Shown here: one piece after another, positions 6,001 through 26,244 of the stretch | Position numbering within the stretch: position 1 is the stretch's first letter | Layout of the letters: every line of letters begins with the position of its first letter | NCBI GenBank assembly: GCA_964010765.1 | Contig: CAXGMD010000038.1 | Coordinates: forward strand, 1-32,544 | Reading direction: 5' to 3' | DNA: 32,544 nucleotides | DNA from: an uncultured bacterium | GTDB taxonomy: Bacteria > SAR324 > NAC60-12 | Program-made: the position numbers and the translations under genes | The notes under the pieces: model-generated | Database searches by the model: none | What the model was told of the DNA's origin: nothing | The model's input: only the letters and a program-made list of their open reading frames with translations

Positions 6001-6012
6001 CTTGCGGTGCTA

Positions 6013-6027
6013 AGACATCAGATGTCT
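6013..6027. promoter_or_regulatory. Putative GntR operator palindrome AGACATC-A-GATGTCT
   Basis: Perfect 7 bp inverted repeat just downstream of the predicted -10 and upstream of the GntR gene. Confidence 0.6.
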
Positions 6028-6076
6028 GAGGGCCCTTTGGATTTCATGAACTGATTGTGATGCAGAGGGAGAAATT

Positions 6077-6808
6077 ATGCTACTGCGAGTTGACAAGCCA
6101 CTGACACGTCGGGTTCAGGAAGCTCTGCTGCGGCTGATCCGTGAACGCAATTGCCAACCTGGTGAAAAGGTACCGACGGAAGCAGAGTTGGGACAATTGT
6201 TTGGGGTTGGACGTTCAACGCTTAGAGAAGCCATCGGCAACCTTGTCGAGCAAGGAATCCTGCAAAAATCCCACGGTCGAGGAACGTTCCTAAGGCAGCT
6301 CCCAATCGTTCTCGAAAGTGGCTTGGAGGAGTTGACCAGTGTTACGGAGCACATCCGAAAAGTAGGTGCCAAGCCTTCAACGCAGAGAATCCAGGTGGAA
6401 AAGATTCCTGCTGATGAGCGACTCAGTCAAAAACTTCAGTTGCCCCAGGGGACAAGCTGTTACTGGATTGAAAGAGTCCGCTTCGCAGACGACGTACCAG
6501 CTGCCTATTGCATTGACGTCATCCCTGAGAATCTGTTGCCGGACGGACTCAAAGAGCAGGTCTTTCGGGATTCACTCTTTGAGCTACTGAGCAAAAGCGG
6601 ACATCTGGTTTCACATACGGAGAGTTACATCACCCCGACCCTTTTGACACAGCAGGAACTACCAGAATTGAATAGTGAGTCTGCGTATTTTCTACTGTTT
6701 GAAGAAGTAAACTACGACGTCAGTGGCTTCCCAGTCTGCTACAGCAACGACTACTACAGCAGTCAGGTTTTTGAATTCAAGATCATCCGTAAGCGTCCCT
6801 TGGACTGA
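6077..6808 (+). CDS. GntR family regulator, HutC subfamily (UTRA domain)
   Basis: wHTH PGEKVPTEAELGQLFGVGRSTLREAI...HGRGTF plus a UTRA-like C-terminus (IERVRFADDVP); GAGGGAG RBS. Confidence 0.92.
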   Translation: MLLRVDKPLTRRVQEALLRLIRERNCQPGEKVPTEAELGQLFGVGRSTLREAIGNLVEQGILQKSHGRGTFLRQLPIVLESGLEELTSVTEHIRKVGAKPSTQRIQVEKIPADERLSQKLQLPQGTSCYWIERVRFADDVPAAYCIDVIPENLLPDGLKEQVFRDSLFELLSKSGHLVSHTESYITPTLLTQQELPELNSESAYFLLFEEVNYDVSGFPVCYSNDYYSSQVFEFKIIRKRPLD

Positions 6809-6840
6809 TTCTTAAACCCATTTAATCAGAGGAAGAAATC

Positions 6841-8097
6841 ATGGAATACCGTCAGCTCAGCCCGGAAACGGTCCCGGGATTTCTGAAGGACATCTCCAGT
6901 GTGCAACAGATCTTTTCGGATCTGGATGATCTAGAAGTTGAGGAGGTAGGGGACGGCAACCTGAACTTTGTCTACAAAGTAAGACAGCGAAAGAATCCCG
7001 AACAAACGGTAGTAATCAAGCAGGCCGTGCCTTTCTTGCGAATTGTTGGCGAATCCTGGCCTCTTTCTCGGACCCGTATGAACTTTGAGATTCAGGCACT
7101 GGAGCACCACACGAAGTATTGCCCCCAGCATGTCCCCGAAATCTTTTACTCTTCCACAGACATGTCGCTGGTGGTGATGCAAAACCTGAATCGGCATGCA
7201 GTCCTTCGTGGTGAAATGATCTTGGGGAAGATCTTCCCAAAACTGGCTGAGCATATTTCATCCTTTCTGGCGAACACCCTCTTCCCTACAACAGACTGGT
7301 GTCTGACCGGGGGTGAGAAAAAAGCGATGGTGGACAGGTTCATTAACCCGGAACTCTGCAAGATCACTGAAGATTTTGTGCTGACTAATCCGTACGAAGA
7401 CCATGAGACAAATGTCTACCACGATGAAGTCACCCAGGCAGACAAAGACTATCTTCAGCAGGATTCCCAACTGAAGGTTGCAGTTGCCGAAATGAAATAT
7501 GCCTTCATGAACCACAGTGAGGCGCTGCTTCACGGGGATCTACATATCGGCAGTATCATGGCCAATGAGGAGGAAACCTACGTAATTGATCCTGAGTTCG
7601 CTTTCTTTGGTCCTATCGGCTTTGATGTGGGGGCTTTCATTGGCAATCTATTCCTCGCATACTATGCGCACGAAGTACGTCAAAAGATGCTGGGGCGTGA
7701 GCCTTTTGAGTATCGCAATTGGATTTTACGGACAGCGGAGGAGACTTGGAATCAATTCCAGGCAAAGTTTGAAGTAAATTGGGTTGCGCACGAACAAGAT
7801 GCTCCCAGTAGCTACTGGAACTATCAAGAAGGACACATTGGCTTCGCCTTGCAGCGTCAGCGATTCTTACGCCACATTTTTGAAGACACCATTGGCTTTG
7901 CTGCCTGCAAAATGATGCGGCGCATTTACGGACTTGCCAAAGTGGCTGACATCGCTGAGATCCCTGATTTAAAAGCTCGCTTGGAGGTGGAACGTAATGT
8001 CATGCGCATGGCTAAAGTGATGGTTCAACAACGCAGCTCCTTCCGTTCCATTGAGGAACTATCGGCGTTAGCCCAAGAAATATCTCCCTTACGCTGA
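6841..8097 (+). CDS. mtnK: S-methyl-5-thioribose kinase (may also act on 5-deoxyribose)
   Basis: EVGDGNLNFVY, VIKQAVP, WPL, NPELCKITED, LLHGDLH.GS, IDPEFAF.GP, MMRRI.G.A.VAD. Confidence 0.93.
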   Translation: MEYRQLSPETVPGFLKDISSVQQIFSDLDDLEVEEVGDGNLNFVYKVRQRKNPEQTVVIKQAVPFLRIVGESWPLSRTRMNFEIQALEHHTKYCPQHVPEIFYSSTDMSLVVMQNLNRHAVLRGEMILGKIFPKLAEHISSFLANTLFPTTDWCLTGGEKKAMVDRFINPELCKITEDFVLTNPYEDHETNVYHDEVTQADKDYLQQDSQLKVAVAEMKYAFMNHSEALLHGDLHIGSIMANEEETYVIDPEFAFFGPIGFDVGAFIGNLFLAYYAHEVRQKMLGREPFEYRNWILRTAEETWNQFQAKFEVNWVAHEQDAPSSYWNYQEGHIGFALQRQRFLRHIFEDTIGFAACKMMRRIYGLAKVADIAEIPDLKARLEVERNVMRMAKVMVQQRSSFRSIEELSALAQEISPLR

Positions 8098-8103
8098 AGT
8101 TTC

Positions 8104-9618
8104 GTGAATCCAATCGTTGAAGTACAACAAATCAGCAAATCCTTTGGAGCAACCCAGGCGCTGCGGGGTGTCTCCTTCTCCTTTTTTTCAGGGGAGATCT
8201 TCGCCTTGGTGGGAGCGAATGGGGCCGGCAAATCCACTCTGATCAAGATCATCTGTGGCTACTATGAGGATTACGAAGGTGAAATTCGTATTGAGGGCCA
8301 ACGTGTTCGGTTTCACAGTCCTCAAGACTCCTTTCGTCAGGGCATTCGCACGGTTCACCAGATTATCGATCAAGGTGTAGTGCCCACAATGAGTATTGCT
8401 GAAAACTTAGCTCTCAACGAGTTGCTGGACCCAGCAACCGGATTGCGTTACCGTCGTCAACACATTCGAACTCGTGCTCAGGAAATCGCAGAACCGATGG
8501 GCCTGACGTTTACTAATTGGGATCTTCCTGTCTCCGATTTGTCCCAAAGTGATCGTCAGTTGATCAGCATCGCCCGCTCTCTGGTTGGTGAACCAAAGTT
8601 ACTGATCTTGGATGAACCGACCTCCTCATTGAGTACCCGTGAGACAGACCGACTGTTTGATAAGCTAAACCAGTTACGCTCGCAAGGAGTTGGGATTGTC
8701 TATGTTTCTCATCGACTCCACGAGGTTGAGTTGCTGGCTGACCGTGCCGGTGTGGTTCGAGATGGGCTGAAAAGCGCTGATCTGACTCGTCCAGTGAAAT
8801 CCCAAAATTTGGTTCGTGCGATGGTAGGTGAAATAGATACAATTTCTCACGACCATCCACATGCTGTTCAAGCTGGAAAAGTTCGACTGGAGTTGAAGGA
8901 TCTTATTGTGCGTCCAGGAGACCCACCATTAAATCTCCAGCTGAGGGCTGGAGAAATTGTTGGTTTGACAGGTTTGATTGGAGCCGGAAAGTCAGAGTTG
9001 GCAGAGATTCTCTATGGCATGCGAGAGCCCGTTTCTGGAGAAATATTTCTGGATGACCAGCCCTTGAAACCCGAATCGATTTCCTCTGCGATCGACAAGG
9101 GGGTCCATCTTGTTCCAGAAGATCGCAGCAACCGAGCGGTGATTCCCCAGTTCAGTGTGAATCAGAATCTTTCCTTACCTTTTCTTAGAAGTTTTTGTCG
9201 GTTTGCGTTGCTGCAACCGAGAAAAGAGCAGCAGGAAGCCGATCGGATGGTGCGAGACCTAGGAGTCAAGTGCCAAGGCATACACGCCCTGATTGGCAGT
9301 CTCTCAGGAGGTAATCAACAGAAGGTTGTAGTGGCTCGCTGGCTTCAACGAAAATTCCGAGTCCTCTTATTGGATGAGCCTTTCCAAGGTGTGGACATCA
9401 AGTCCCGGCATGACATTATTCAATACCTACGAGATCAACTACATGATGAAGTGGTGCTGGTACTCGCTGCAGATCTCGATGAAATTCTGGAAGTGGCTGA
9501 TCGAGTTCTGGTGCTCAACCGGGGACGTCTGATGGGAGAACAAAACCGTAATTCAATTGACCGAACACAGCTCCTTGACTGGATCTCTACCACCGAAACA
9601 AAATTCGCCCATGCCTGA
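8104..9618 (+). CDS. Sugar ABC transporter ATP-binding protein (CUT2, two NBDs)
   Basis: GTG start; GANGAGKST, LILDEPT, VPEDR, LSGGNQQK, LLLDEP. Confidence 0.93.
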   Translation: MNPIVEVQQISKSFGATQALRGVSFSFFSGEIFALVGANGAGKSTLIKIICGYYEDYEGEIRIEGQRVRFHSPQDSFRQGIRTVHQIIDQGVVPTMSIAENLALNELLDPATGLRYRRQHIRTRAQEIAEPMGLTFTNWDLPVSDLSQSDRQLISIARSLVGEPKLLILDEPTSSLSTRETDRLFDKLNQLRSQGVGIVYVSHRLHEVELLADRAGVVRDGLKSADLTRPVKSQNLVRAMVGEIDTISHDHPHAVQAGKVRLELKDLIVRPGDPPLNLQLRAGEIVGLTGLIGAGKSELAEILYGMREPVSGEIFLDDQPLKPESISSAIDKGVHLVPEDRSNRAVIPQFSVNQNLSLPFLRSFCRFALLQPRKEQQEADRMVRDLGVKCQGIHALIGSLSGGNQQKVVVARWLQRKFRVLLLDEPFQGVDIKSRHDIIQYLRDQLHDEVVLVLAADLDEILEVADRVLVLNRGRLMGEQNRNSIDRTQLLDWISTTETKFAHA

Positions 9619-10633
9619 AGCTACAAACACCGAAAAAGGTGGAACATCCAATAATTGGGATGCCAAGCAATTTGCCATTCGCTATGGATTTTTGATTGTG
9701 ATGGCTGCCTTGTACCTGCTGTTTAGTATCTTGGAACCTGCATTTTTAACCTGGAGTAATCAGTTTTCCATTCTCTTGGGCATCGCGATTTATGGCATTC
9801 TCGCACTTGGTGTCACTTTCACCCTAGTTGTCGATGGCTTGGATCTATCGATTGGCTCTGTCGCTGCGCTGAGTGTGATGATCTCCTCTTACTGCATGGT
9901 TGTGCTCGAGCAGGGTGCCGTCATTAGCGTGATAATTTGTCTGCTGCTGGGCGCCTTGGTTGGACTCCTAAACGGTCTATTGATTGTTAAGATGAAGATC
10001 CCTGATTTGCTAACAACACTGGGGATGATGTTTTTGATTCAAGGACTTCAGCTGATCCCCTCTGCAGGACGGACTATCAGTGAAGGGATGCTGATGGAGG
10101 ACGGGGAGGAAGCACTGGGGTTTTTTGATCCGAGCTTCCTTTATCTTGGACAGGGCCGACTTTTCGGGGTAATTCCAATTCCAGTGATTGTCATGCTGGT
10201 GATCGCTCTCCTCGTTTACATTGTCCTGGACCATACCCGTTGGGGTCGAGTGATGTACGCCATTGGTGGAAACCCAGAAGCCACTCGACTGGCTGGAGCA
10301 CCTGTGAATTTATATCGGATCATGGCTTACGTGATCAGCGGAACGATTGCTTCGATCGGTGGTGTTCTCCTGGTAGCCCGAGTTGGAGTCGGGGACATCA
10401 CCAGCGGTACTGGTTTGCTATTGGATGCTGTCGGGGCTGCCTTGATTGGCTTTGCAGTTTTTGGAGTTCGACGACCAAATCCTTTTGGCACTCTTGTCGG
10501 AGCCATCTTCATTGGGGTTCTATTGAGCGGCTTAACGATGTTGAGCCTGCCCTACTACACTCAGGATTTCATCAAAGGCGGGGTGCTTGTCCTCTCGCTG
10601 ATGTTTACTTTTGCGCTGGCTAAGCGCTCTTAG
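9611..10633 (+). CDS. Sugar ABC transporter permease (RbsC family)
   Basis: GLDLSIGS, TRWGRVMYAIGGNPEATRLAG. ATG at 9611 overlaps the upstream stop and is preferred to the track's TTG at 9557. Confidence 0.92.
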   Translation: MPEATNTEKGGTSNNWDAKQFAIRYGFLIVMAALYLLFSILEPAFLTWSNQFSILLGIAIYGILALGVTFTLVVDGLDLSIGSVAALSVMISSYCMVVLEQGAVISVIICLLLGALVGLLNGLLIVKMKIPDLLTTLGMMFLIQGLQLIPSAGRTISEGMLMEDGEEALGFFDPSFLYLGQGRLFGVIPIPVIVMLVIALLVYIVLDHTRWGRVMYAIGGNPEATRLAGAPVNLYRIMAYVISGTIASIGGVLLVARVGVGDITSGTGLLLDAVGAALIGFAVFGVRRPNPFGTLVGAIFIGVLLSGLTMLSLPYYTQDFIKGGVLVLSLMFTFALAKRS

Positions 10634-10701
10634 GTCTTCCCTTGTGGAAGTTCACGCAGAGATTTTTTCTCTGCCTCATTTCCTTTCTCATGGAGATTCA
10701 G

Positions 10702-11763
10702 ATGAAAAAGATGCTGTCCGCAGCTTGTTCCCTGTTATTCCTGTTGATCACAACCACTACGCTTTGGGCCCAGATCGCAGGGGCTCCTCCACCATTTGAT
10801 GGATCTAAAAAACTCAAAGTTGCCTTGGTCCAGCTTTTGGTGGAAGGCGAATTCATGCAGACCTTCCGCTCTGGAGCCAAACGCCAGGCTGAGATGCTGG
10901 GTATGGAATTCCTGGCATTGAATACGAAAAACGCCGATAACAAAGCCCAGGCTGATGCCGTAGATCGTGCGATCAGTCTTGGAGTGGATGCAATCCTTCT
11001 GAGTCACGGACGACCGGAGACGATGCGAGAGCCCATCCAGCGTGCCTTGGCGAAAGGGATCAAAGTAGTCGCATTCGACATCTACTTTGAAGATCTGACC
11101 AATATCGTTACCCACATGGCCCAAGATGATGTCCTACTGGGTCAAATGGCACTGGATGCCCTGGTCGCCGATTTCAACGGCCAAGCAAACGTTGGGTATA
11201 TCTACATTCCCGGTGTTCTACCACTGGACAAGCGAGATACCAGCTTCACCAAGGTCAAGCAGGAATACCCAGGTATCAAGGAAATCGCCCGTCATGGCTC
11301 CCTCGAGTCACCGATCTCCACCAAGAATGCTGATCAGGTGAAGGCTACGATGCAGGCAAACCGGAATATCAACGCCTACTTTGCACCTTATGATGAGTTT
11401 GCAAAAGGGGTTGTGATCGCCCTGCGTGAACTGAACATGAGTGACAAGGTGAAAGTCTACAGTGCTGACATCAGCACCGTTGATATTCGGCAGATGACCC
11501 AGGATGGAAGCCCTTGGGCTGCGACTGCCGCTACGAACCCAGCTGCTATTGGAGCTACCGGGATTCGAGCTTTGGCCATGAAACTGACCGGAGAATGGCT
11601 GCCACAAGAAATCACGATTCCACCTATGCTCTTCACCCAGAAAATGCTGCGTGACAACAACGTTCAACGGTTCAATGATCTCTTTGAGAAATTCCCAGAG
11701 TTCAATACGGTTGATCGTGCCAGCGCCACTTGGATTCCGAGAGATTCCTCAGGCAAGTTCTAA
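10702..11763 (+). CDS. Sugar ABC transporter substrate-binding protein (PBP type 1), candidate methylthioribose/5-deoxyribose binder
   Basis: GGAG RBS at 10692, ATG at 10702, signal peptide MKKMLSAACSLLFLLITTTTLWA; GVDAILL and GIKVVAFD motifs. The ligand is inferred only from the mtnK/mtnA context. Confidence 0.88.
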   Translation: MKKMLSAACSLLFLLITTTTLWAQIAGAPPPFDGSKKLKVALVQLLVEGEFMQTFRSGAKRQAEMLGMEFLALNTKNADNKAQADAVDRAISLGVDAILLSHGRPETMREPIQRALAKGIKVVAFDIYFEDLTNIVTHMAQDDVLLGQMALDALVADFNGQANVGYIYIPGVLPLDKRDTSFTKVKQEYPGIKEIARHGSLESPISTKNADQVKATMQANRNINAYFAPYDEFAKGVVIALRELNMSDKVKVYSADISTVDIRQMTQDGSPWAATAATNPAAIGATGIRALAMKLTGEWLPQEITIPPMLFTQKMLRDNNVQRFNDLFEKFPEFNTVDRASATWIPRDSSGKF

Positions 11764-11784
11764 CCTCCTATTTTTGAGAACTCT

Positions 11785-12825
11785 ATGAGCCTCCCGTTGA
11801 GCCTTCAATGGCAAGAAGATGAGCTGATCATGTTGGATCAGACGCGTCTACCCATCGAAGAAGTGATGTTGCGACCAAAGACGGTCGAAGCTGTCTTTGA
11901 AGCCATCAAAATGCTTCGGGTACGGGGGGCCCCTGCGATTGGGATTGCCGGTGCTTATGGACTGGTCATCGCCATGCAGCACAAGCGCAACCTCACTTGG
12001 CCTGAGTTTCTCCTGGAAGCAGAACGCCAAGCAGATTATCTCAACAGCGCCCGACCCACTGCGGTGAATCTAAGTTGGGCACTTAAGCGAATGATTGGGA
12101 AATTAAATGATCAGCACGACAGCGAAACTGCTTTTCAGGTCTTGTTAGAGGAAGCCAAGGTCATTCATGAAGAAGATCGAAAACTCTGCCGGGGCATTGG
12201 TAAAAATGGACTCTCGCTCATTAAAGAGGGGATGGGAATCCTGACTCATTGCAATGCTGGTGGATTAGCAACCAGTGAGCTTGGAACTGCACTGGCCCCA
12301 ATGTATCTGGCCCATGAAAAAGGCATCAGTTTCCGAGTTTATTCGGATGAAACCAGACCACTGCTCCAGGGCTCTCGACTGACAGCTTGGGAACTACAGA
12401 GAAGTGGGATTGATGTCACCACGATTTGCGACAACATGGCTGCCGTGATGATGCAAGAAGGCAAGATCGATATGGTGATCGTGGGTACCGATCGGGTTGC
12501 CGCTAACGGGGACGTTGCCAACAAGATTGGCACCTTCAACGTTGCGATACTGGCGAACTATTTCAAAATTCCTTTTTACGTGGCCTGTCCAGCGTCCACT
12601 ATTGATCTGATCACCCCAACTGGTGCCGAGATTGTGATTGAAGAACGAGCCCCTGAAGAGGTGACAGCTTTTGGAGAACGTAGAACCGCACCAATCGATA
12701 TCAAAGTAAGAAATCCCGCCTTCGACGTCACACCTGCAAATCTAGTCACTGGCATCATTACCGAACAGACGATTCTTCGAGCACCATATGCTGAGTCGAT
12801 TCGTCAGACCTACGGTAATGCATGA
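11785..12825 (+). CDS. mtnA: S-methyl-5-thioribose-1-phosphate isomerase
   Basis: LDQTRLP, VRGAPAIG, ARPTAVNL, LTHCNAGGLAT, DETRPLLQGSRLT, GDVANKIGT, NPAFDVTP. Confidence 0.96.
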   Translation: MSLPLSLQWQEDELIMLDQTRLPIEEVMLRPKTVEAVFEAIKMLRVRGAPAIGIAGAYGLVIAMQHKRNLTWPEFLLEAERQADYLNSARPTAVNLSWALKRMIGKLNDQHDSETAFQVLLEEAKVIHEEDRKLCRGIGKNGLSLIKEGMGILTHCNAGGLATSELGTALAPMYLAHEKGISFRVYSDETRPLLQGSRLTAWELQRSGIDVTTICDNMAAVMMQEGKIDMVIVGTDRVAANGDVANKIGTFNVAILANYFKIPFYVACPASTIDLITPTGAEIVIEERAPEEVTAFGERRTAPIDIKVRNPAFDVTPANLVTGIITEQTILRAPYAESIRQTYGNA

Positions 12826-12856
12826 ATAGTCCATATCCCACGTTTTGTTTTTGATA

Positions 12857-12897
12857 GGTGCTGAATTTTGTGAAAGCAAATCAGCACTTCTTCTTTC
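12857..12897 (+). terminator. Putative intrinsic terminator/hairpin between mtnA and the RLP gene
   Basis: GTGCTGA (12858-12864) pairs with TCAGCAC (12881-12887), with an inner TTTG/CAAA stem, followed by TTCTTCTTT. Confidence 0.5.
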
Positions 12898-12921
12898 CTA
12901 TCCATTTTCATAGCAACAAGC

Positions 12922-14040
12922 ATGAACACCCGCTTTTGGGTTGAATATCACCTGACCGGTTCTCCTAAAGAAACCGAAGACATGGCCAAGGGAATCGCTA
13001 TTGAACAAAGTGCCGGTCTACCACTCCAGCTTGTTGCTTCTGGATTTTTGCAGGATGAAATTCTTGGACGTGTAGAAGACCTCAAAGTCCTGAATGATCA
13101 AACTTCTTACGTTAAAATTAGCTACCTGACTGAATCAATTGGCAATGAATTGACACAACTGATGAATGTCCTTTACGGAAACATCAGTCTCTGGAAAGGA
13201 ATCAAAGTAATTGGTATTGAATTACCCGATCCGTTGAAAGCATACTTCGCAGGTCCGCGCTTTGGCATCCGTGGTCTTCGAGACAGACTGCGGGCCCCAG
13301 TGGGGCCACTGTTGATGGCTCAGGTCAAACCAATGGGAAGGGGCACCCATGAATTAGCAGAGTTGGCTTATCGATTTGCCATAGGAGGTATAGATCTGAT
13401 CATCGAAGATCACATGGTCACCGACCAGACCTGGAGCCATTTCAGAGACAGAGTGTTTGCCATCAGCCAAGCTGTTCAGCGCGCTAACTCAAAGACCAAG
13501 GGCAATTGTGTTTATGTGCCTAATGTCACTTCTTCACCAGAAGAACTCCTGCTGAGAGCAGACTGGGCGTCCCGATATGGAGCTGGTGCTTTGCTCGTTT
13601 CACCGGGATTGACAGGGTTCGATAGTCTTCAAAGGCTTAGCCAGAATAGACGCCCAGGACTTCCTATCATTGCACATCCCACCTTCCTTGGTTCGCTGAT
13701 GCTGAGTCCAAATCAGGGCATCGTCCCAGGTTTATTGCTTGGAACCATATTTCGTCTAGCTGGTGCAGATTGTAGCCTTCTTCCTTATGCAGGGGGACGT
13801 TTCGGTTTCCATGAAGAAGACTGTCAATCAGTGATTGAACACTGCCAGCAAGCTGACTTACTGCTGAAGCGTTCGATGCCTGCTTTGGGAGGAGGAATTA
13901 CTTTGGAGAACCTACCATCTCTACATAAGAAATATGGAAATGATGTCATCTATCTCCTTGGTGGGCAGCTTTATGGAATTTCGGCTGATCTGCCGGAGAA
14001 TGTGCGCCAATTACGAAGAGTACTTGAAAGAGAGACGTGA
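12922..14040 (+). CDS. RuBisCO-like protein (form IV, resembles DeepYkr/MTRu-1P isomerase type) with an atypical active site
   Basis: IAIEQS, LYGNISL, GPRFGIRGLR, PLL...KPMG, GGIDLIIEDH, YVPNVT, IIAHP, RLAGAD, GGRF, PALGGG, LLGG; located after mtnK/mtnA. Confidence 0.88.
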   Translation: MNTRFWVEYHLTGSPKETEDMAKGIAIEQSAGLPLQLVASGFLQDEILGRVEDLKVLNDQTSYVKISYLTESIGNELTQLMNVLYGNISLWKGIKVIGIELPDPLKAYFAGPRFGIRGLRDRLRAPVGPLLMAQVKPMGRGTHELAELAYRFAIGGIDLIIEDHMVTDQTWSHFRDRVFAISQAVQRANSKTKGNCVYVPNVTSSPEELLLRADWASRYGAGALLVSPGLTGFDSLQRLSQNRRPGLPIIAHPTFLGSLMLSPNQGIVPGLLLGTIFRLAGADCSLLPYAGGRFGFHEEDCQSVIEHCQQADLLLKRSMPALGGGITLENLPSLHKKYGNDVIYLLGGQLYGISADLPENVRQLRRVLERET

Positions 14041-14578
14041 AATGGAATGCTTGCCTAGCTTTGTTCCTAGGCTTTATCTGGGGTAGTACCGTAGCCTGAA
14101 CTACTGAAGATGGTGAATTCCAGCTTTTCGATTCTGATGGCTATCGTATTCAATCCTAATGTTCGGCTACTCCAGCTCACTGAGATGGTGTACAGACTCT
14201 CACTACGGGATCTGCCTAGGAACTTTGTTTGAGACAGTCTGTCCATTTTGTGAATGTGCAACCCGTACTTTGGAGTCAGGGATTTTTTCTTCCAGATCAA
14301 CCTCTAACAATCATTCCAGGAAGTGACTTGCTACACAATGTTGGTTTCGGGCCAATGGAAGAACTCTGGGCAGACTATCTCCAACACTACGCTCAGTAGT
14401 GGGATGGAATGATCATCTTTTATTGCACTCCTGACTGCTGGCATTCATGGAATACAGCTAAAAGAGTTGCTGAGAAGTGGCCTGATTTGAAGGTGGGGTG
14501 GTTTCGAGAGGGTATGATGCTTGGCAGGAAAAGGGATATCCAGTGGAGTTCCTTCAACAACCTCTTCCAATGCCATGA
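14037..14578 (+). pseudogene. Degraded rhodanese-like 'PQQ-dependent catabolism-associated CXXCW motif' protein
   Basis: From GTG at 14037: MKWNACLALFLGFIWGSTVA*TTEDGEFQLFDSDGYRIQS*CSATPAH*DGVQTLTT...IPGSDLLHNVGFG...*WDGMIIFYCTPDCWHSWNTAKR...WFREG, then a frameshift to DAWQEKGYP...PMP* (TGA at 14576-14578). Stops at 14097, 14157, 14181, 14217 and 14397. Confidence 0.75.
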
Positions 14579-14612: not shown

Positions 14613-16956
<2,344 letters not shown>

Positions 16957-17005
16957 CTGTTTTTCTCGTTAAATTAGAATGAAAACCGTGACGGATTGTG
17001 GAAAC

Positions 17006-17788
17006 TCAAAGTTTCCACGTTGGATCTTTTTGATCAACCAGACGGAGGAGGGCAGGCCATTCAGGATGACGGTTCTTTGCGCCCGCCTGCGCAGAACCTC
17101 CCTCAAATTGCTCTCGGGTCTTGGCCATGATACCAGGAGGAATTCTTTGTAGTTTTCCCGTCGACATCGCACGTAATTGAACCTCAGCATTACGAATGAA
17201 CGCCAAGTGCCGAACGAAAGCCCAAGTACAATCTGGACCGGCAGTGATCAGGCCATGATTTCTGAAAACCAGAGTATGGTTTTCGGCCCCCATCGCTTCT
17301 AGCAAACGAGGGCTCTCACTCCCGTCAAGAACAATTCCTTCGAAATCATGGTAGCCAACACGCTCAAAGAATTGACAGCCTTCCTGTGTCACAGGGATCA
17401 CTTCGCTATTGGTGGCACACAATGATTGGGAGTGAGCTTCATGAGTGTGCAGAACACAGTGTAGATCCGGGCGCCCCTTATGAATTGTGGAGTGGATCAG
17501 ATACCCAGCTCGGTTGACAGGCCAATCACTCTCGCTGATCTGATTGCCATCGATATCAATCCGAATTAGATCACTGGCTCGCAGTTCATCGTAGCGAACA
17601 CCAAAGGGATTGATCAAAAAGTGATCAGTTCCCGGAATACGATAGGTTATGTGATTATAAACCACGCTCGTCCAGCCATAGTGATCCACCAAGCGATAAC
17701 AAGCGGCGAGTTGCAGCCTAGCTTGCCACTCAGCTTCAGCCATTCCTTGAGGGGTTCTTGGCCAGAAAATTTCAAAGCTGCGTGCCAT
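17006..17788 (-). CDS. Class II aldolase/adducin family protein
   Basis: GGAG RBS and ATG at 17788; LAACYRL, NHITYR, FLINPFG, IHSTIH.GRPD, VLHTH and RNHG metal motifs. Confidence 0.88.
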   Translation of the reverse strand: MARSFEIFWPRTPQGMAEAEWQARLQLAACYRLVDHYGWTSVVYNHITYRIPGTDHFLINPFGVRYDELRASDLIRIDIDGNQISESDWPVNRAGYLIHSTIHKGRPDLHCVLHTHEAHSQSLCATNSEVIPVTQEGCQFFERVGYHDFEGIVLDGSESPRLLEAMGAENHTLVFRNHGLITAGPDCTWAFVRHLAFIRNAEVQLRAMSTGKLQRIPPGIMAKTREQFEGGSAQAGAKNRHPEWPALLRLVDQKDPTWKL

Positions 17789-17823
17789 CGTACAAACTCC
17801 GATTGGAGATGAGAGGGACGAGT

Positions 17824-18771
17824 TTAATGATGAATCGGTTCTGTAGCCCAAAACTCAGGAGCCCGTTCCCGTAACCGAATCAACCGCGCCATTAAATTAG
17901 TGAGAGGAACTTCTTTACCATGCTTGCGAGCGGCTGCCACCAAGTATCCGTTGAGCGATTCAATCTCCGTCAGGCGTTGGGCTTTCAAATCTTGGAGCAT
18001 AGATGGTCGGTGATAGGTGTGGTCTGCACAGGCGTAGTCAATCAGGCCGTGCACTTTTTCTGGATCCACGGATGCGCCTTCCAACTGTGCAACAGTAATC
18101 GCTTCCTCGGCAATTTCGTGCGCGAGTTGACGTCCGTCTGGAAACTGTTGAAGCAGACCTGGAGAACCATCGACTAGACTGCACAAGGCATTCATCGCCA
18201 TATTGAAACAAGCCTTTTGCCAGATAAATTTGCGTACTTCGGCTGTGACGTAAGTTTTCAGGCCAGCTTGATTTAAATCTTCACCAATGTGATTCACGAT
18301 TTCGCTCTGCTCTCCATTGGCTGAAAACATCCAAGTTTCTGAACTGCCAGCAGAGCTTACCTCACCTGGTTTGATGAACTCAGCAGGCATGATCGAGACA
18401 CCCTCCACAGTTTGATCGATCCCGACATAAGCCGCAACCTGCTCCCCATTTCCCAAACCATTTTGCAGTGTGATGAAATGGGCAGGCCGAAGGTTTGAAG
18501 GCAAATTAGCCAGGGCTTCTTTAATTCGGTGGGTCTTGGTGAAGAGAAAAACCACATCCACAGAATTAGCGTTAGTAACCAAATCAGCTTGTAGTGGAAT
18601 CAGATGCTTCTGTTTGTCCAAATGGCAGATCAATCCACCCTGCTCTTTGATCGCCTTGGCGTGATCAGGAGTTCGATTGAGTAGTTCGACAGGATGCCCT
18701 TGTAGAGCGAGTCTTGCTCCAAAAACCGAGCCCATCGCGCCAGCTCCGAGCACACTATACTTCAGCTTCAT
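17824..18771 (-). CDS. Ketopantoate reductase family protein (2-oxoacid reductase, PanE/ApbA-like)
   Basis: GAGAMG, LFTK, LQNGLG, IWQK, SMLQD, TEIESLNG. Confidence 0.88.
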   Translation of the reverse strand: MKLKYSVLGAGAMGSVFGARLALQGHPVELLNRTPDHAKAIKEQGGLICHLDKQKHLIPLQADLVTNANSVDVVFLFTKTHRIKEALANLPSNLRPAHFITLQNGLGNGEQVAAYVGIDQTVEGVSIMPAEFIKPGEVSSAGSSETWMFSANGEQSEIVNHIGEDLNQAGLKTYVTAEVRKFIWQKACFNMAMNALCSLVDGSPGLLQQFPDGRQLAHEIAEEAITVAQLEGASVDPEKVHGLIDYACADHTYHRPSMLQDLKAQRLTEIESLNGYLVAAARKHGKEVPLTNLMARLIRLRERAPEFWATEPIHH

Positions 18772-18775
18772 CTAT

Positions 18776-20101
18776 TCACCCGGTGAGTAGTCGTGGGAGC
18801 CACAAAACAATACCAGGAAATGCCACCAGGAGTAGGACTCTGAGTAGCTCTGCCCCGAAGAAAGGCATCACTCCTTTGAATGTCTCACTCATGGGAATAT
18901 CCTCGGCCATCGCATGGATCACAAAAACATTCATCCCAACAGGTGGAGTGATCAAACCAAGTTCCACGACAATCAGCGCTAGGATTCCAAACCAGATTTT
19001 CAGTTCTTCCGGGCCCAAACCAAAGTCGAGACCATCGATCACGGGCCAAAAGAAAGGCATCGCCAGCAAGATCATGGACAATGAGTCCATGAGACATCCT
19101 AGAATAATCAATGACATTAGCATCAGCAGAAGAATCGTGATCGGATCCAATCCCGATGACTGCATAATCTCCACTGCTACCTGAGGAACTCCTCCACGAG
19201 ACATGAAAATCTTAAGCATCTCGGCCCCAAGCAGAATCAAATAGATCATGCCCGAAGTCTTGGCGGTCTCCAGTAAGGCCGCTTTGAGTTGTGGAATCTT
19301 AATCAAACCTCGATAGATTCCAAGTAATCCTACTAGAAAAACACCAGCTGCGGCGGCTGGAGTGGGATTAAACAAACCAAAATAGATACCACCAATCACC
19401 GCTATAAAGATCCCTAGAACCGGTAAAACCCCAAGAGTAGCATTCCAGAATTCTTGACGATCCATTGGCTCACGGGAGGGTCCTGACTCAGGAAAGAAGC
19501 GAACGTAGATCGCAATTGTCACCAAAAACAGGCCCACTGCCAACAAACCAGGAATCATCGCAGCCATGAACATCGCAATGATGTTTGCTTCCACGATGAT
19601 CGCGTAGACAACCAGAACAACTGAGGGTGGAATCAATATTCCTAGTACGCCCCCAGCAGCTAATGTCCCAGTTGCCAAAGAGCCACTATATTTGTAATTA
19701 CGAAGCTCCGGTAGCGCCACTTTTCCCATCGTGGAGGCTGTGGCCAATGAGGATCCACAAACAGCTCCGAATCCAGCACAGGCGATGATAGCTGACATGG
19801 CGACACCCCCTCGAACCCAGCCTACCCATGCATTTGCTGCCTGGAAAAGCTCTCGTGATAGACCCGCCTTGGTTGCCAAATTTCCCATCAGCACAAACAT
19901 AGGGACCACAGAAAGGTCATAGATGGAAAATTGAATGTAGGCCAGATCCTTCAATTGAGACATGAAGATCAGTGGCCCGTTCAGGATCGTCACGCCAATT
20001 CCGCCAGTGACGATCATGGCATACGCAATCGGTATCCGCAGTGCGATCAAGAATAACAACCCCAAAAGGCCAGCCAATCCAACGAGTAGTTCAAATGACA
20101 T
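18776..20101 (-). CDS. dctM: TRAP transporter large permease
   Basis: VPMFVLMG, FGAVCGSSLAT, GGVLGILIPPS, ELGLITPPVGMNVFV. Confidence 0.94.
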   Translation of the reverse strand: MSFELLVGLAGLLGLLFLIALRIPIAYAMIVTGGIGVTILNGPLIFMSQLKDLAYIQFSIYDLSVVPMFVLMGNLATKAGLSRELFQAANAWVGWVRGGVAMSAIIACAGFGAVCGSSLATASTMGKVALPELRNYKYSGSLATGTLAAGGVLGILIPPSVVLVVYAIIVEANIIAMFMAAMIPGLLAVGLFLVTIAIYVRFFPESGPSREPMDRQEFWNATLGVLPVLGIFIAVIGGIYFGLFNPTPAAAAGVFLVGLLGIYRGLIKIPQLKAALLETAKTSGMIYLILLGAEMLKIFMSRGGVPQVAVEIMQSSGLDPITILLLMLMSLIILGCLMDSLSMILLAMPFFWPVIDGLDFGLGPEELKIWFGILALIVVELGLITPPVGMNVFVIHAMAEDIPMSETFKGVMPFFGAELLRVLLLVAFPGIVLWLPRLLTG

Positions 20102-20111
20102 GGTTGCGGCG

Positions 20112-20603
20112 TTACTCGGGGATTAAAGATGGTTCGGGTACTCCATCCGGATGAATAAACGTGATTAGAGCGGCCAACAGGAGGAGGAGAAGAGAGAAAA
20201 TTGAAGGGACAAACGCATACCAGATCGGCACCTGTAAGATTGTCGTAGTCTCTAGGTATATCTGGTAATCTAGCAATCCTTCGTACATTCGCCAGATCAA
20301 CAGAATGCTGAAGGCTGCGGCCACCAAAGAGCCCACTCGACTTAAAAATCGAACTTTTGCAGGTTTCATTTTAGCCGTGAAGACATCCGCAGAAACATTT
20401 GCGAAAGTCAATTGGCAGTAAGGAAGGAACGCAAAGGAAGCAACTGCCACTCCCATTTCAGTGAGTTCAAAATCCCCAGGAAAGGGAGTGGCAATCAAGA
20501 AACCCGCTGCTGCACTGTAGGTAGTCATTATCACCAGCAGCAACAAAATCACACCACCAAACAGGGCCCAACCCACAATCAGTTTCGAGGCCCATTTTAC
20601 CAT
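20112..20603 (-). CDS. dctQ: TRAP transporter small permease
   Basis: 163 aa, four TM segments, PGDFELTE, located between dctP and dctM. Confidence 0.9.
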   Translation of the reverse strand: MVKWASKLIVGWALFGGVILLLLVIMTTYSAAAGFLIATPFPGDFELTEMGVAVASFAFLPYCQLTFANVSADVFTAKMKPAKVRFLSRVGSLVAAAFSILLIWRMYEGLLDYQIYLETTTILQVPIWYAFVPSIFSLLLLLLAALITFIHPDGVPEPSLIPE

Positions 20604-20640
20604 CTTGGAAGCCCTGGAAAATCTTCAGAAATCTGGGCCG

Positions 20641-21678
20641 TCACTTGGAATACTTGGCGACCAGTTCTCGGGCCTTGCTGACAAGGCTCTTACCGTCGAT
20701 GCCAGAATCACTGACTTCTTTCACCCAGCGATCGACAACAGGCTCCAGCGCTTTCTTGAACTCAGCAGTTTCTGCAGTACTCAATGTGATATGCTCATTC
20801 CCTGCTTTTGTCGCTACACCGATGCCAAACAGGTCAGTACGGTGCCACACTTCGCCAACTTCTCTGACCCAAGCTTCGTTGGAGGCTTGCAGGAAAACGT
20901 CCTGAAGATCTTTGGGCAACTTATCCCATGTCCCTTGATTCATGGAGACCTGGAAGGTCGTTGTCCCAAAGCGGGTCATATTCTCACCTTCAATCTGGTA
21001 CTTGGTCATATCTTGGAGCTTCAACGGTGGAATGATTTCCCAGGGAATCAAGCCTCCATCAACCACATTCTTGGAAAGAGCTTGTGGAAAGTCTGGTACT
21101 GGCATAGATACTGGCGCCGCTCCCATTGCTTCTAGAACCCAGGCACCTGTTCTGGTGGGGATACGCATCTTGGTGCCCTGAAAGTCACTGGGCTTGCGGA
21201 TTACCTTGTCAACCATATGGATCGCCTGCCCTTGGTGGACATGCAGAAACATCACTTTCATACCGCGGTATTCTTCCGCAAGGTAATCCTCGAACATCTC
21301 ACGCATGGCAAGATTGGTGGCCACAGGATCATTCGTATGGATGAAAGGTAGTTCGAAGACCTCTGTACGTGGAAACAAGCCTGGCGTGTACCCATTGACT
21401 GTCCAGATCAGATCAACCACCCCGTCACGGACTTGTCGAACCAGTTGAGGTGGTTTGCCTCCCAAGGACATTGCTGGGTAGATATCAATTTTAACTCTCC
21501 CTTTTGATAACTCCTCTACCTTCTTTACCCATGGTTCCAGCATTTGTGTATGCGCTGGAGCTTTTGGACCTAATAAATGGTGCAACTTGAGAGTGAAATC
21601 AGCGGCTTGAACCGAACCAGCGACGAGGAGTGCAGATGCACTAAAAATAGAAGCAATCAAAATTGGCAGGCGTTTCAT
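20641..21678 (-). CDS. dctP: TRAP transporter substrate-binding protein
   Basis: Signal peptide, SKGRVKIDIYPAMSLGG, VRDGVVD, YTPGLFP, FELPF, GTKMRIP (conserved carboxylate-binding Arg). Confidence 0.93.
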   Translation of the reverse strand: MKRLPILIASIFSASALLVAGSVQAADFTLKLHHLLGPKAPAHTQMLEPWVKKVEELSKGRVKIDIYPAMSLGGKPPQLVRQVRDGVVDLIWTVNGYTPGLFPRTEVFELPFIHTNDPVATNLAMREMFEDYLAEEYRGMKVMFLHVHQGQAIHMVDKVIRKPSDFQGTKMRIPTRTGAWVLEAMGAAPVSMPVPDFPQALSKNVVDGGLIPWEIIPPLKLQDMTKYQIEGENMTRFGTTTFQVSMNQGTWDKLPKDLQDVFLQASNEAWVREVGEVWHRTDLFGIGVATKAGNEHITLSTAETAEFKKALEPVVDRWVKEVSDSGIDGKSLVSKARELVAKYSK

Positions 21679-22010: not shown

Positions 22011-22973
22011 ATGTCATCAGTTCTCCCACCAGCATTTGCTTCACGTCTCAATTCTATGAAATCAAAACCCGAACTTTGGGAGGGCCGAGAAGATCTCATT
22101 GGTTGGATTCATCGACAGGGCACAATCAGTGGGCTTGAACTTGTTGATTTCAACTACCCTGAACACTTGGAAGGCTATTCACTCTCTGAAATTAAGATTG
22201 CTCTCTCTGAAGCTGGATTATCAACTGGAGCAGTTTGTCTAAGATATCCGAAGCATTTCAGCTTGGGTGCTTTCACGAATCCAGCTGCAGCACTTCGACG
22301 TGAAGCAATCCAGCTGACTCTGAATGCTGGTCAGTGGGCAAGAGAGCTCGGTGCAAAAGAATTGATTGTCTGGCCTGCCTATGACGGCTACGACTACCCT
22401 CTCCAAGTAAATTACAATGAACTTTGGCAGTACGTTGTTCAGGGGTTCCGCGAAGTCTGTGATTTCTTTCCGGAGCTTAGGGTTTCCTTGGAACCGAAAC
22501 CAACAGAGCCACGCCGTTACTTTATACAGAACACCACGGGGGCTGGATTGTTGATGGTACTAGAGGTTGACCGTGAGAATATGGGGCTTACCCTAGATTT
22601 TGGCCACTGCCTGATGGCGGGGGAAAACCCTGCTCAGTCTGTGGCGCTGGTTGGGAAGCACAAGAAACTCTGGGGCATGCAGCTCAACGATGGTTTTGTC
22701 CGTCCAGGCTGCGAAGATGGGATGCTACTTGGTTCTGTTCATCCACAACAAACCCTGGAATGCCTCCTCTGGCTCCAACGTACTCAATATGATGGGCACC
22801 TGTACTTTGACACCTTTCCAATCAATGAAGATCCCGTTCGTGAGGCAGAAGCCAACATTCGACGTTGCACTCGTTGGTGGAATCAGGCTGCTGATCTAGA
22901 AGCTAAAGGATTGGGTAACTGGCAATCAGATCATGACATTTTGAAAACTTTTGAAGCAATGGAGGAACTCTGA
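22011..22973 (+). CDS. Xylose isomerase-like TIM-barrel sugar isomerase/epimerase
   Basis: GAFTNP, W..YDGYDY, LEPKPTEPR, TLDFGH, QLNDG, ED, YFDTFP metal-site motifs. Confidence 0.85.
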   Translation: MSSVLPPAFASRLNSMKSKPELWEGREDLIGWIHRQGTISGLELVDFNYPEHLEGYSLSEIKIALSEAGLSTGAVCLRYPKHFSLGAFTNPAAALRREAIQLTLNAGQWARELGAKELIVWPAYDGYDYPLQVNYNELWQYVVQGFREVCDFFPELRVSLEPKPTEPRRYFIQNTTGAGLLMVLEVDRENMGLTLDFGHCLMAGENPAQSVALVGKHKKLWGMQLNDGFVRPGCEDGMLLGSVHPQQTLECLLWLQRTQYDGHLYFDTFPINEDPVREAEANIRRCTRWWNQAADLEAKGLGNWQSDHDILKTFEAMEEL

Positions 22974-23881
22974 AAAAACGAGTTTTGGTTGTTGGTGCCG
23001 CTAACTTGGACAGGATGGTCTACGTTGATCAGTTACCGGCTGTTGGAGCAACAATCATGGGGCAAAGATATGAAGAGCATCCTGGTGGTAAGGGTTCCAA
23101 TCAAGCAGTTGCCGCCTCTTTGTGGGGCACACAGACCCAATTCGTTGGTTGTATCGGTGAAGATGAGGCAGGAACCATTTTGCGCGAGGCCATGCTTAGT
23201 GCAGGAGTGAATTTGGATCTTCTCCAAACTCACCCTATCGGATCAGGCCTAGCACTTGATTTTGTTGACCAGTCTGGTCGATACCAGGCCGTTGTGATTT
23301 CGAGGGCAAACGAATATGTTACGTCTGATTTTCTTAAACCAGATCCCACTTTCTGGAAGGACATTGGCTTGGTGGTTCAGCAACTAGAGATTCCATTTGA
23401 AACAGTTGATGCTATTGGAAGAATGGCTCTCAGTTTTGACGTGCCTGTCCTTTTAAATGCTGCACCTGCTGCCAAAATTCCTAAGTCATGGTGGGATTGG
23501 ATCAACATGCTAGTAGTCAATGAAGTGGAAGCCTCTGCCTTGACTGGCCTTGAAATCCAACATCCTCAAGACGCAGAAATAGCAGCACAGCAGCTTCACA
23601 AACATTGTCGAAATGTCTTAATCACCCTCGGAGAAACGGGTGTCTTATTGTGCAATGTCGAGGGTGTTGATCACCTTCAAGCCTATAGAGTACCGGTCGT
23701 GAGTACCCTTGGTGCTGGTGATGCTTTTGTGGGGGTATTGGCTGCCGAATGGGTAGGACATCAAAATCTGCGGCAAGCAGCAGAGCAAGCAAATCGAGCT
23801 GCGGCTGCTAGTGTCCAGCGTTCAGGAGCGCAGGTTTCTTATGTGCGACGAGAAGAATTCAAAAATTGGGGATTGGCTTGA
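22970..23881 (+). CDS. PfkB family carbohydrate kinase (ribokinase-like) 1
   Basis: VLVVGAANLD, PGGKGSNQA, QQLE, LNAAPA, VNEVEA, ITLGETG, STLGAGDAF. Start is uncertain: CTG at 22970 (GGAGG upstream) or TTG at 22985. Confidence 0.85.
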   Translation: MKKRVLVVGAANLDRMVYVDQLPAVGATIMGQRYEEHPGGKGSNQAVAASLWGTQTQFVGCIGEDEAGTILREAMLSAGVNLDLLQTHPIGSGLALDFVDQSGRYQAVVISRANEYVTSDFLKPDPTFWKDIGLVVQQLEIPFETVDAIGRMALSFDVPVLLNAAPAAKIPKSWWDWINMLVVNEVEASALTGLEIQHPQDAEIAAQQLHKHCRNVLITLGETGVLLCNVEGVDHLQAYRVPVVSTLGAGDAFVGVLAAEWVGHQNLRQAAEQANRAAAASVQRSGAQVSYVRREEFKNWGLA

Positions 23882-23949
23882 TTGAAAAAATATGATCTAA
23901 ATCTGTATTTTCTAATTGAATTGCTTAAAAAATTACCTGGGGAGGCGAC

Positions 23950-24414
23950 ATGCTCAAAACCATTCATCCACTGCTAAGTGCCGATCTGCTTTACATTCTC
24001 CGTTCTATGGGTCACGGGGATGAATTGATCCTGGCTGACTGCAATTTCCCATCTGCCTCCGTAGCTGCACATACTGTCACCGGTGAGTTGATCAACATGA
24101 ACGGGGTCGATATTCCTGAGGCAGCAGGGGCGATTCTCTCCGTGTTCCCGCTGGATAGCTTTGTCGAGCATGCCGTGCTGAGAATGGAAGTCGTTGGGAA
24201 TCCAGATGAGTTAGTCCCTTGTCACACGGATATGCAACGAGTCGTAAAAGAGACTTCAGGCGATCAGTGGAAAATGGGTTCGATTGAACGCTTTGCCTTT
24301 TACGAGAGAGCACGCAATGCGTACGCCGTTGTTTGTGCTGGAAATGAGAGGAGATCCTATGGGTGCTTTGTCTTGGTAAAAGGTGTCTTGGATCCAGACG
24401 GAAACGTAGTCTGA
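23950..24414 (+). CDS. RbsD/FucU family sugar mutarotase/pyranase
   Basis: MLKTIHPLLS, MGHGDELILADCNFP, ERFAFYERA, YG...LVKGV; GGAGG RBS. Confidence 0.93.
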   Translation: MLKTIHPLLSADLLYILRSMGHGDELILADCNFPSASVAAHTVTGELINMNGVDIPEAAGAILSVFPLDSFVEHAVLRMEVVGNPDELVPCHTDMQRVVKETSGDQWKMGSIERFAFYERARNAYAVVCAGNERRSYGCFVLVKGVLDPDGNVV

Positions 24415-24442
24415 CAATCTTCAACAAGCTCGAGCGCAATCT

Positions 24443-25372: not shown

Positions 25373-25374
25373 TT

Positions 25375-26244
25375 ATGAGAGATTGGTCTCGTCATGTTTT
25401 CATTTGGCCGGCTACGTTAGTTGTCTTGCTTGTTACACTTTTTCCCCTTGTCTACACACTAGACTTGAGTTTTCAAAACTCTAGACTTGTTCCCCCACTC
25501 CCTCCTAAATACATCGGTTTAGGAAACTATACTAAACTCTTTGGGCAAGAACGGTTTTGGTCTGTTATTGGGAATACAAGTATTTTTGTTTTTGTGTCTG
25601 TAACTTTACAGTATGTATTGGGGTTTGCTATCGCACTGGCATTACATAGTAAAGTTGCTGGAGAAAAACTTTATCGCATAACTTTCCTTCTGCCAATGCT
25701 GATGACACCAATTGCAGTAGCATTGTTATGGAAGACCATGTTCAATCAACAATTTGGCCCCTTAAACCAGGTATTTACTTTTTTTGGCTATGCAAATCCA
25801 CCTTTTCTTACTGAAAATATTTGGAGTTATGGATCTCTAATAACTGTCGAAGTGTGGCAATGGACTCCATTTGTGATCTTAATGATGCTTGCTGGCCTAC
25901 AGTCTCTGCCTACTGATATTTTTGAAGCAGCTCGATTGGAAAATGCTTCCTCTTTACAAATGTTTTTAGGAATCACTTTCCCAATGCTTTTACCTCTGAC
26001 AGCTGCGGTGATATTTATTCGCATTGTAGAGGCTTTCAAAATTATAGACACAGTTTATATTATGACAGGAGGAGGGCCAGGTATCGCTACAGAAACACTG
26101 ACTCTCTTCGCTTATCAAGAAGGATTAAAGAAGTTTAATCTCGGCTACACTTCTGCGATAAGCTTTTTATTTCTGATTTTTATCATCATTTTTGGATTGA
26201 TTTATATGGTCATATTAAAACCCCAAATCGAGAAAAGACGTTGA
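25375..26244 (+). CDS. Carbohydrate ABC transporter permease (CUT1, MalF/UgpA-like)
   Basis: YIGLGNY, VWQWTPF, AGLQSLP..IFEAARLE (EAA loop), TGGGPG.ATET. Confidence 0.93.
   Translation: MRDWSRHVFIWPATLVVLLVTLFPLVYTLDLSFQNSRLVPPLPPKYIGLGNYTKLFGQERFWSVIGNTSIFVFVSVTLQYVLGFAIALALHSKVAGEKLYRITFLLPMLMTPIAVALLWKTMFNQQFGPLNQVFTFFGYANPPFLTENIWSYGSLITVEVWQWTPFVILMMLAGLQSLPTDIFEAARLENASSLQMFLGITFPMLLPLTAAVIFIRIVEAFKIIDTVYIMTGGGPGIATETLTLFAYQEGLKKFNLGYTSAISFLFLIFIIIFGLIYMVILKPQIEKRR

Follow-up and report, generated by a model that had tools for sequence, protein, structure and literature searches.

What does a cell do with a sugar whose importer is encoded between a 5-methylthioribose kinase (MtnK) and a 5-methylthioribose-1-phosphate isomerase (MtnA), and does the RuBisCO-like protein (RLP) encoded behind them take part? 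The question is raised by contig CAXGMD010000038.1 of an uncultured SAR324 bacterium (NAC60-12), a stretch of 32,544 nucleotides that is referred to here as the window and that is one entire contig of a metagenome-assembled genome (MAG; 3.86 Mb, 266 contigs, 92.4% complete; genome G000). Seven genes lie head to tail on the plus strand between positions 6077 and 14040 with intergenic gaps of -62 to 96 nt. An earlier note on this DNA had recognized among them mtnK, a complete ATP-binding cassette (ABC) importer of the CUT2 type, mtnA and an RLP gene, and all seven genes were confirmed at their places. The note had also stated that MtnB, MtnC, MtnD and a cupin are missing and that no class II aldolase is co-oriented with the operon. 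Pfam scans of 29 open reading frames (ORFs), the main non-nested reading frames of the window, bore this out: none of the four was found, and the sole class II aldolase of the window (17006-17851, minus strand; adducin type, PRK07044, best PDB match 3ocr) belongs to a separate convergent cluster and not to the mtn operon.

We considered two alternatives for the fate of the sugar phosphate. The earlier note had the RLP act as an isomerase that converts 5-methylthioribulose-1-phosphate (MTRu-1P) to 1-methylthioxylulose-5-phosphate (MTXu-5P) and 5-deoxyribulose-1-phosphate to 1-deoxyxylulose-5-phosphate (DXP). In the reading that we prefer, with a probability of roughly 0.55, import, MtnK and MtnA feed an aldolase of the dihydroxyacetone phosphate (DHAP) shunt that is encoded in trans, and the RLP is a dispensable, degenerate protein that supplies neither MTXu-5P nor DXP.

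The RLP has the fold of its superfamily. The predicted model shows the N-terminal domain and the triosephosphate isomerase (TIM) barrel of the RuBisCO superfamily, with Z scores above 40 to RuBisCOs, and the nearest solved structure is an RLP of Rhodopseudomonas palustris (3qfw; 198 bits, Z 45.6, root-mean-square deviation (rmsd) 1.5 over 346 residues). The motif DLIIEDH of the window RLP stands opposite DLIKDDH in the alignment with 3qfw, and 12 out of 12 canonical relatives have DIIKDDH at this place. When 18 sequences were aligned, I or M stood at the position of the carbamylated lysine in the window RLP and its five closest relatives (60-95% identical), and K in the 12 others. The same division was found among the 120 best homologs, where KDDH is present in all 115 sequences outside this subclade and the lysine is absent in all five inside it. 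We take this position, Ile161 of the window RLP, to be that of Lys201 of spinach RuBisCO, whose carbamate binds Mg. Both features by which an RLP of the isoprenoid shunt of methylthioadenosine (MTA) could be recognized are lacking in the window, as the RLP reads IEDH where the carbamylated lysine (KDDH) is expected and no cupin methylsulfurylase adjoins it among the 29 ORFs. The loss extends beyond a single residue. There are 127 columns conserved in at least 11 of the 12 canonical sequences; 80 of them were kept in all six members of the subclade, 43 were variable and four had switched to one new residue. The variable columns include the lysine of KPxG (lost in two of the six), the histidine of AHPxF (lost in one) and the glycine-rich loops. 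As read from the alignment, the pattern is one of relaxation at the active site with the scaffold conserved, and not that of a new active site.

The origin of this protein was approached by comparison with eight other genomes of the genus (G001-G008). The operon of G001 begins with the same six genes, GntR regulator, MtnK, ATPase, permease, binding protein and MtnA, which are 71-91% identical to those of the window. Behind them lie genes for a fused transketolase-like protein, for a canonical RLP with the motifs LKPMG and DIIKDDHG (45% identity to the window RLP) and for a FucA-like aldolase. Scanning a genome collection returned 80 further loci (L025-L104) with RLPs 39-46% identical to that of the window. 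One of the two scan patterns contained the KDDH motif, and for this reason the lysine counts given above were taken from the 120 best homologs and not from these 80 loci. Transketolase-like genes were found at most 5 kb from the RLP start in 61 of the 80 loci, almost always immediately upstream. Most of them consist of separate N and C parts, and they share 47-75% identity with the G001 protein. Among the 19 loci that lack such a pair, some are truncated by the end of the contig. When the neighbours were clustered, the C part was present in 60 loci, the N part in 53, MtnA in 12, MtnK in 10 and the CUT2 importer genes in 8-9. An O-acetylhomoserine-sulfhydrylase-like gene occurs in seven loci, and there was no cupin cluster among the clustered neighbours of the 80 RLPs. 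The module made up of the two transketolase-like parts and the RLP is present in at least 10 phyla (e.g., L027:8059-11104; L017:7899-11227), and MtnA or MtnK lies within 10 kb of it in only 10-12 loci. We found no published description of the transketolase-RLP pair in a search that did not extend to subscription papers and supplements. As a mere speculation on its chemistry, the pair might split MTXu-5P into glyceraldehyde-3-P and a two-carbon unit bound to ThDP, from which methanethiol could be eliminated.

In the phylogenetic tree the lysine-less subclade forms one branch (support 100) on a long stem, with 1.01 changes per column, and has the RLP of G001 as its sister (SH-aLRT 90) within a group supported at 98. 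The next neighbour is the RLP of Pseudovibrio (L027), at whose locus a mutarotase gene, an aldolase and the ABC importer accompany MtnK, MtnA, the transketolase pair and the RLP. By phylogeny as well as by synteny, that is, by its position behind mtnA, the window RLP belongs to the transketolase-linked clade. It differs from the syntenic operon of its sister branch in G001 in that the active site is degenerate and that the operon has neither the transketolase-like gene nor the aldolase. No transketolase-like gene is present between mtnA and the RLP gene, which are 96 nt apart, and no such partner was found in the 92%-complete genome, where the best matches to the G001 protein are only 30% identical (dxs, tkt). 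Taken together with the operons of G001 and Pseudovibrio, the tree shows that the arrangement in the window goes back to such an operon, from which the transketolase-like gene and the aldolase were lost.

The RLP gene is being lost in the sister species and is dispensable. G005 has two partial copies with three in-frame stops in common and additional frameshifts. In G002, G004 and G006 only a remnant of 83 residues is left and the importer is lost from residue ~126 of the ATPase to residue ~296 of the binding protein; in G008 only the first ~100 nt of the RLP gene remain, and in G007 (80% complete) no RLP was found. The same in-frame-looking deletion, which joins the N-terminus of the ATPase to the C-terminus of the binding protein, is seen at L018:8094-8644, L019:8214-8755 and L022:2-328. 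As three sister genomes share this deletion, a single loss in their common ancestor removed the importer along with most of the RLP. The metagenome contig L106 carries a further pseudogene, which is interrupted by two in-frame stops and lacks 13270-14056. A metagenome scan gave two loci only, and the neighbourhoods of the subclade members P0003-P0005 (60-63% identical) were not among them. In contrast to the RLP gene, mtnK and mtnA were each seen in six of the eight sister genomes, intact where seen and 92-99% identical except in G001. Of 88 genomes sampled across the phylum, 18 have MtnK and five have the RLP. The ratio of nonsynonymous to synonymous changes (dN/dS), computed with the in-frame stop codons of L106 skipped, is 0.18-0.23 for the RLP and 0.05-0.07 for MtnA in the same genome pairs.

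G003 carries an intact but divergent RLP allele. The two RLPs are 59% identical in protein sequence, whereas the neighbouring genes for the binding protein and MtnA are 97% identical in DNA sequence; between the window and G003 the flanks are 94-97% identical and the RLP gene only 65%. The synonymous divergence of MtnA between the two genomes is 0.12 (dN/dS 0.07), whereas the synonymous sites of the RLP are saturated (pS 0.77), which means that the two alleles are far older than the genomes carrying them. From these alignments, the RLP alleles are swapped by recombination between ~12816 and 13949-13972. The RLP gene thus appears as an exchangeable cassette (window 12817-13972; L006, L024, L021), and the same breakpoints recur in contigs of RNA libraries from other studies: these contigs diverge from the window exactly at 12816 and rejoin it at 13972, and they represent the other RLP allele in the same samples.

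The earlier note had proposed to search the rest of the genome for mtnB, mtnD, a cupin and an aldolase, with the caveat that missing genes may lie outside the window. This search gave a mixed result. No MtnB was found above the cut-off in the 92%-complete genome (best 52.7 bits, cut-off 137), and neither the enolase-phosphatase MtnC (TIGR01691) nor the acireductone dioxygenase (ARD, MtnD; PF03079) had a match. The canonical methionine salvage pathway (MtnB, MtnC or MtnW/X, MtnD) is hence not recognizable in this genome, so that the full pathway elsewhere, which the note had named as an argument against its own reading, did not turn up. The caveat itself proved justified, since the MTA/S-adenosylhomocysteine (SAH) nucleosidase MtnN is encoded on contig C14 (122.5 bits, cut-off 73.8) and a FucA-like class II aldolase on contig C21 (31896-32543). 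With MtnN the cell can make its own methylthioribose and 5-deoxyribose; no MTA phosphorylase reached the cut-off in the genome. The genome also contains dxs (805.6 bits, cut-off 466). The aldolase on C21 is the only FucA-like one of the genome and 68.5% identical to the aldolase within the operon of G001. Exactly one such aldolase per genome was found in five out of five sister genomes searched, that of G001 being the copy in the operon. On C21 (24000-34000, L109) the gene is located behind genes for a SorC-type regulator, a CUT1 importer, an Fe-ADH_2 protein and a HAD-IIB hydrolase, and an MFS transporter gene follows. As this operon has its own regulator and transporter, a role of the aldolase in the mtn pathway is plausible but unproven.

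The importer has the components of a CUT2 (ribose-type) system: an ATPase with two domains, a BPD_transp_2 permease and a Peripla_BP_4 binding protein. The best NCBIfam matches of the ATPase are AraG, XylG and RbsA, all below their cut-offs. For the binding protein the search with phmmer gave 4ry8_A as best PDB match (E 3e-65), followed by 5ulb (3e-38). The fold comparison of the predicted model (mean predicted local distance difference test (pLDDT) 90.7) led to the same result, with 4ry8_B at the top (Z 39.6, rmsd 3.1 over 315 residues, 36% identity), 5ulb next (Z 37.2) and all others at or below 31.3. According to its PDB title, 4RY8 is the 5-methylthioribose (MTR) transporter binding protein of Thermotoga lettingae (TLET_1677), which is thus both the best sequence match and the best fold match, at an identity of only 36%. 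The importer most likely takes up MTR and/or 5-deoxyribose, as judged from this similarity. Import of waste sugars of S-adenosylmethionine (SAM), as the earlier note had assumed, is in line with the match to the MTR-bound 4RY8 and is the best-supported part of that note. The binding protein is a member of a large family of proteins of ~350 residues at 52-70% identity. One of them, from Denitrovibrio acetiphilus, is 58% identical to that of the window; PMC6079011 reports sugar transporter genes in a 5-deoxyribose cluster of this organism, which do not necessarily include the gene with 58% identity. Dissolved MTA is present at picomolar levels in Atlantic seawater, according to bioRxiv 10.1101/2021.03.09.434501, and makes the uptake of its sugar moiety by a deep-ocean heterotroph ecologically plausible.

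From these comparisons we propose the following pathway. The seven genes would form a single operon under the control of the GntR regulator, and the CUT2 importer would take up MTR and/or 5-deoxyribose. MtnK would phosphorylate the imported sugar and MtnA would isomerize the product to the ribulose-1-phosphate; both enzymes would also handle the MTR and 5-deoxyribose that MtnN releases in the cell itself. The ketose-1-phosphate would then be cleaved to DHAP and an aldehyde by the FucA-like aldolase encoded on C21, so that a DHAP shunt with its aldolase in trans would result. The RLP would be a catalytically degenerate remnant of a transketolase-coupled RLP that has lost its partner and the carbamylated lysine; it would not be needed for the flux through the pathway and would deliver neither MTXu-5P nor DXP. 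The ligand, the substrate of the aldolase and the lack of isomerase activity of the RLP are what we infer from sequence comparison.

Two known systems resemble this arrangement. In the DHAP shunt (MtnK or MtnP, MtnA and Ald2/DrdA; R. rubrum, R. palustris, B. thuringiensis, extraintestinal pathogenic E. coli) the ketose-1-phosphate is split to DHAP and an aldehyde, as described in PMC5893883, PMC6079011 and PMC12632272, and exogenous 5-deoxyribose or MTR is used as substrate in E. coli according to PMC12632272 and PMC10986504. The window shares MtnK and MtnA with this shunt, its genome has a FucA-like class II aldolase as well, and transporter genes are also mentioned for some 5-deoxyribose clusters in PMC6079011. 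It differs in that the aldolase is on another contig inside another sugar operon, that the regulator is of the GntR/UTRA type instead of the DeoR-type MtnR, and that an RLP gene is attached. With the MTA-isoprenoid shunt (MtnP, MtnA, DeepYkr RLP and cupin methylsulfurylase; R. rubrum, R. palustris) the window has in common that MtnA is followed by an RLP. In contrast to that shunt, no cupin adjoins, the RLP is without the carbamyl-lysine, and the clade is linked to transketolase-like genes.

Several observations weigh against the reading that we prefer. The gene has an intact frame of 372 codons and the protein a confident model (pLDDT 91.1). The subclade members are only 60% identical to each other and yet intact, and the identities to the G003 allele at codon positions 1, 2 and 3 (64/84/38%) indicate long purifying selection. 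Among the 15 members listed for each 90% cluster, full-length copies of 372 aa number 10 in a cluster of 22 and eight in a cluster of 89. Six metatranscriptomic runs contain 52-73% of the sampled words of mtnA and the RLP; contigs from four runs of four studies span the RLP (12991-14003, 12912-14010, 13116-13811, 13201-13658), and one contig (12660-13110) bridges mtnA and the RLP. Expression cannot be ranked from the depths of the contigs, and the libraries may contain carried-over DNA. Being intact, constrained and present in RNA libraries, the RLP probably still does something, and it may catalyze by another route. As to the aldolase, it scores higher against E. coli FucA (207 bits) than against DrdA (155 bits), and it lies in another sugar operon with the regulator, ABC transporter, Fe-ADH_2 and hydrolase genes mentioned above. 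Furthermore, seven unassigned Cupin_2 matches exist elsewhere in the genome, and a transketolase-like or cupin partner could be unassembled in a 92%-complete MAG. A residual or new function is therefore a serious rival: the lysine-less RLP could have a new selected function, either as a pseudoenzyme that binds the ketose-phosphate or a partner or as a carbamate-free enzyme, and act as a non-essential accessory of the operon. The frames kept intact across 60% divergence and the constraint seen in the codon-position pattern speak for this, as do the retention of 80 of the 127 family-conserved columns by all six members, the abundance of the subclade in public data and its presence in RNA libraries, the two anciently diverged alleles kept at the same site in closely related genomes, and the joint loss of importer and RLP in G002, G004 and G006. 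However, no new conserved active-site pattern has emerged, since only four conservative replacements are subclade-wide; the lysine of KPxG is absent in two of six members and the conserved histidine in one, the gene has been pseudogenized or deleted several times, and its dN/dS is three to four times that of mtnA. Hence we regard a new function tentatively, as a clearly weaker candidate than decay; that the RLP keeps a selected function without the carbamate-metal site, in the form of at least two ancient allelic cassettes that persist in marine populations and recombine at fixed borders behind mtnA, is possible but doubtful on present evidence.

The isomerase model of the earlier note fares worse. 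MtnK and MtnA would supply the substrates, there is no cupin in the window, and the nearest structure is an RLP from R. palustris, whose RLP1 has this activity according to PMC5893883, with rates of ~1 per second for the isomerases of R. rubrum and R. palustris. The carbamyl-lysine, however, is replaced by Ile in the window and 43 of 127 conserved columns are no longer kept; the canonical relatives are coupled to a transketolase-like pair and not to a cupin, and in the window that partner is gone. Moreover, sister genomes in which mtnK and mtnA are still in place have a broken RLP gene or have lost it, dxs is present, and no downstream enzyme for MTXu-5P was identified. We consider it unlikely that this RLP is an active 1,3-isomerase for which a cupin would be unnecessary. 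For the formation of DXP we found nothing in its favour, and this idea is equally improbable. With it falls the explanation of the missing cupin, whose absence is no anomaly because the RLP clade is not cupin-linked. Finally, the assignment to MTR and 5-deoxyribose could be wrong altogether and the operon could handle a different pentose, e.g., ribose or another 5-substituted sugar. The three importer proteins give matches to models for ribose, arabinose and xylose as well, all below the cut-offs. But MtnK and MtnA both pass their equivalog cut-offs, and 4RY8 (Z 39.6) ranks above the ribose-binding proteins (at most 31), 5ulb at 37.2 excepted, so that we give this possibility very little credence.

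The features of the locus are compiled in the following table.

Table 1. Positions and supporting matches of the genes and sequence elements of the mtn operon in the window.
Feature	Position	Strand	Evidence
GntR-family regulator with UTRA effector domain (HutC-type)	6077..6808	+	Pfam GntR 65.5 bits, UTRA 94.4 bits
MtnK, 5-methylthioribose kinase family	6841..8097	+	TIGR01767 530.1 bits, cut-off 275
CUT2-type ABC ATPase, two ABC domains	8104..9618	+	ABC_tran in two stretches, 192.9 bits
CUT2 permease, RbsC-like	9557..10633	+	BPD_transp_2, 144 bits
Periplasmic binding protein, Peripla_BP_4	10642..11763	+	123 bits; relative of MTR-binding 4RY8
MtnA, 5-methylthioribose-1-phosphate isomerase	11785..12825	+	TIGR00512 438.9 bits, cut-off 279
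Degenerate RLP, 372 aa, RuBisCO_large family	12922..14040	+	PF00016, 76 bits
Codon of RLP Ile161, at the carbamylated-lysine position	13402..13404	+	DLIIEDH vs DLIKDDH of 3qfw
Variable cassette, RLP gene exchanged as a block	12817..13972		near-identical flanks, divergent RLP
Terminator-like hairpin 3' of the RLP stop codon	14053..14072	+	consensus match only

Two of the gene starts are likely to be located further downstream. The permease probably starts later than at the first TTG, and a start near 10690 is likely for the binding protein, as suggested by the 99% identical protein P0121 of 357 aa. Upstream of the operon, ~50 nt before the gene of the GntR regulator, we identified the inverted repeat CTAAGACATC-A-GATGTCTGAG at 6010..6030. 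The same palindrome is found unchanged in G002 and G004, and G001 has a similar but imperfect one upstream. By its sequence and position the repeat is a candidate operator to which the regulator may bind. The region shows no enrichment of terminator-like sites (10 against 8.6 expected) or of promoter-like sites. The Rfam scan found no family in the window and hence no SAM riboswitch.

The remainder of the window contains two further clusters. The mtn operon is separated by pobA (14613-15866) from the convergent cluster at 15847-21678 on the minus strand, which encodes a TRAP transporter (DctPQM), a PanE-like reductase, the adducin-type class II aldolase and a short MetE-like protein that consists of the catalytic domain only (PRK06520). 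A second sugar cluster on the plus strand (22011-32544) comprises genes for a xylose-isomerase-like TIM barrel, two PfkB kinases and an RbsD/FucU mutarotase and, in addition, a CUT1 ABC importer, a DeoC/LacD-family aldolase and an aldehyde dehydrogenase. Judging from its gene content, it looks like a catabolic set of the deoxy-sugar or sulfo-sugar type.

The content of mtnK, mtnA and RLP genes alone would mislead annotators to an MTA-isoprenoid shunt or to a new route to DXP. Instead, the working pathway is probably an import-fed DHAP shunt, and the catalysis-defining residue of its superfamily has been lost from the RLP. If the lysine-less RLP does have a selected function, it would be the first carbamate-independent or non-catalytic RLP tied to the uptake of SAM waste sugars. 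Within one genus the genomes form a series that leads from a canonical transketolase-RLP operon to a partnerless, lysine-less RLP, a pseudogene and finally a deletion. This series could help to reveal the role of the transketolase-RLP pair and how members of the RuBisCO family are lost or repurposed.

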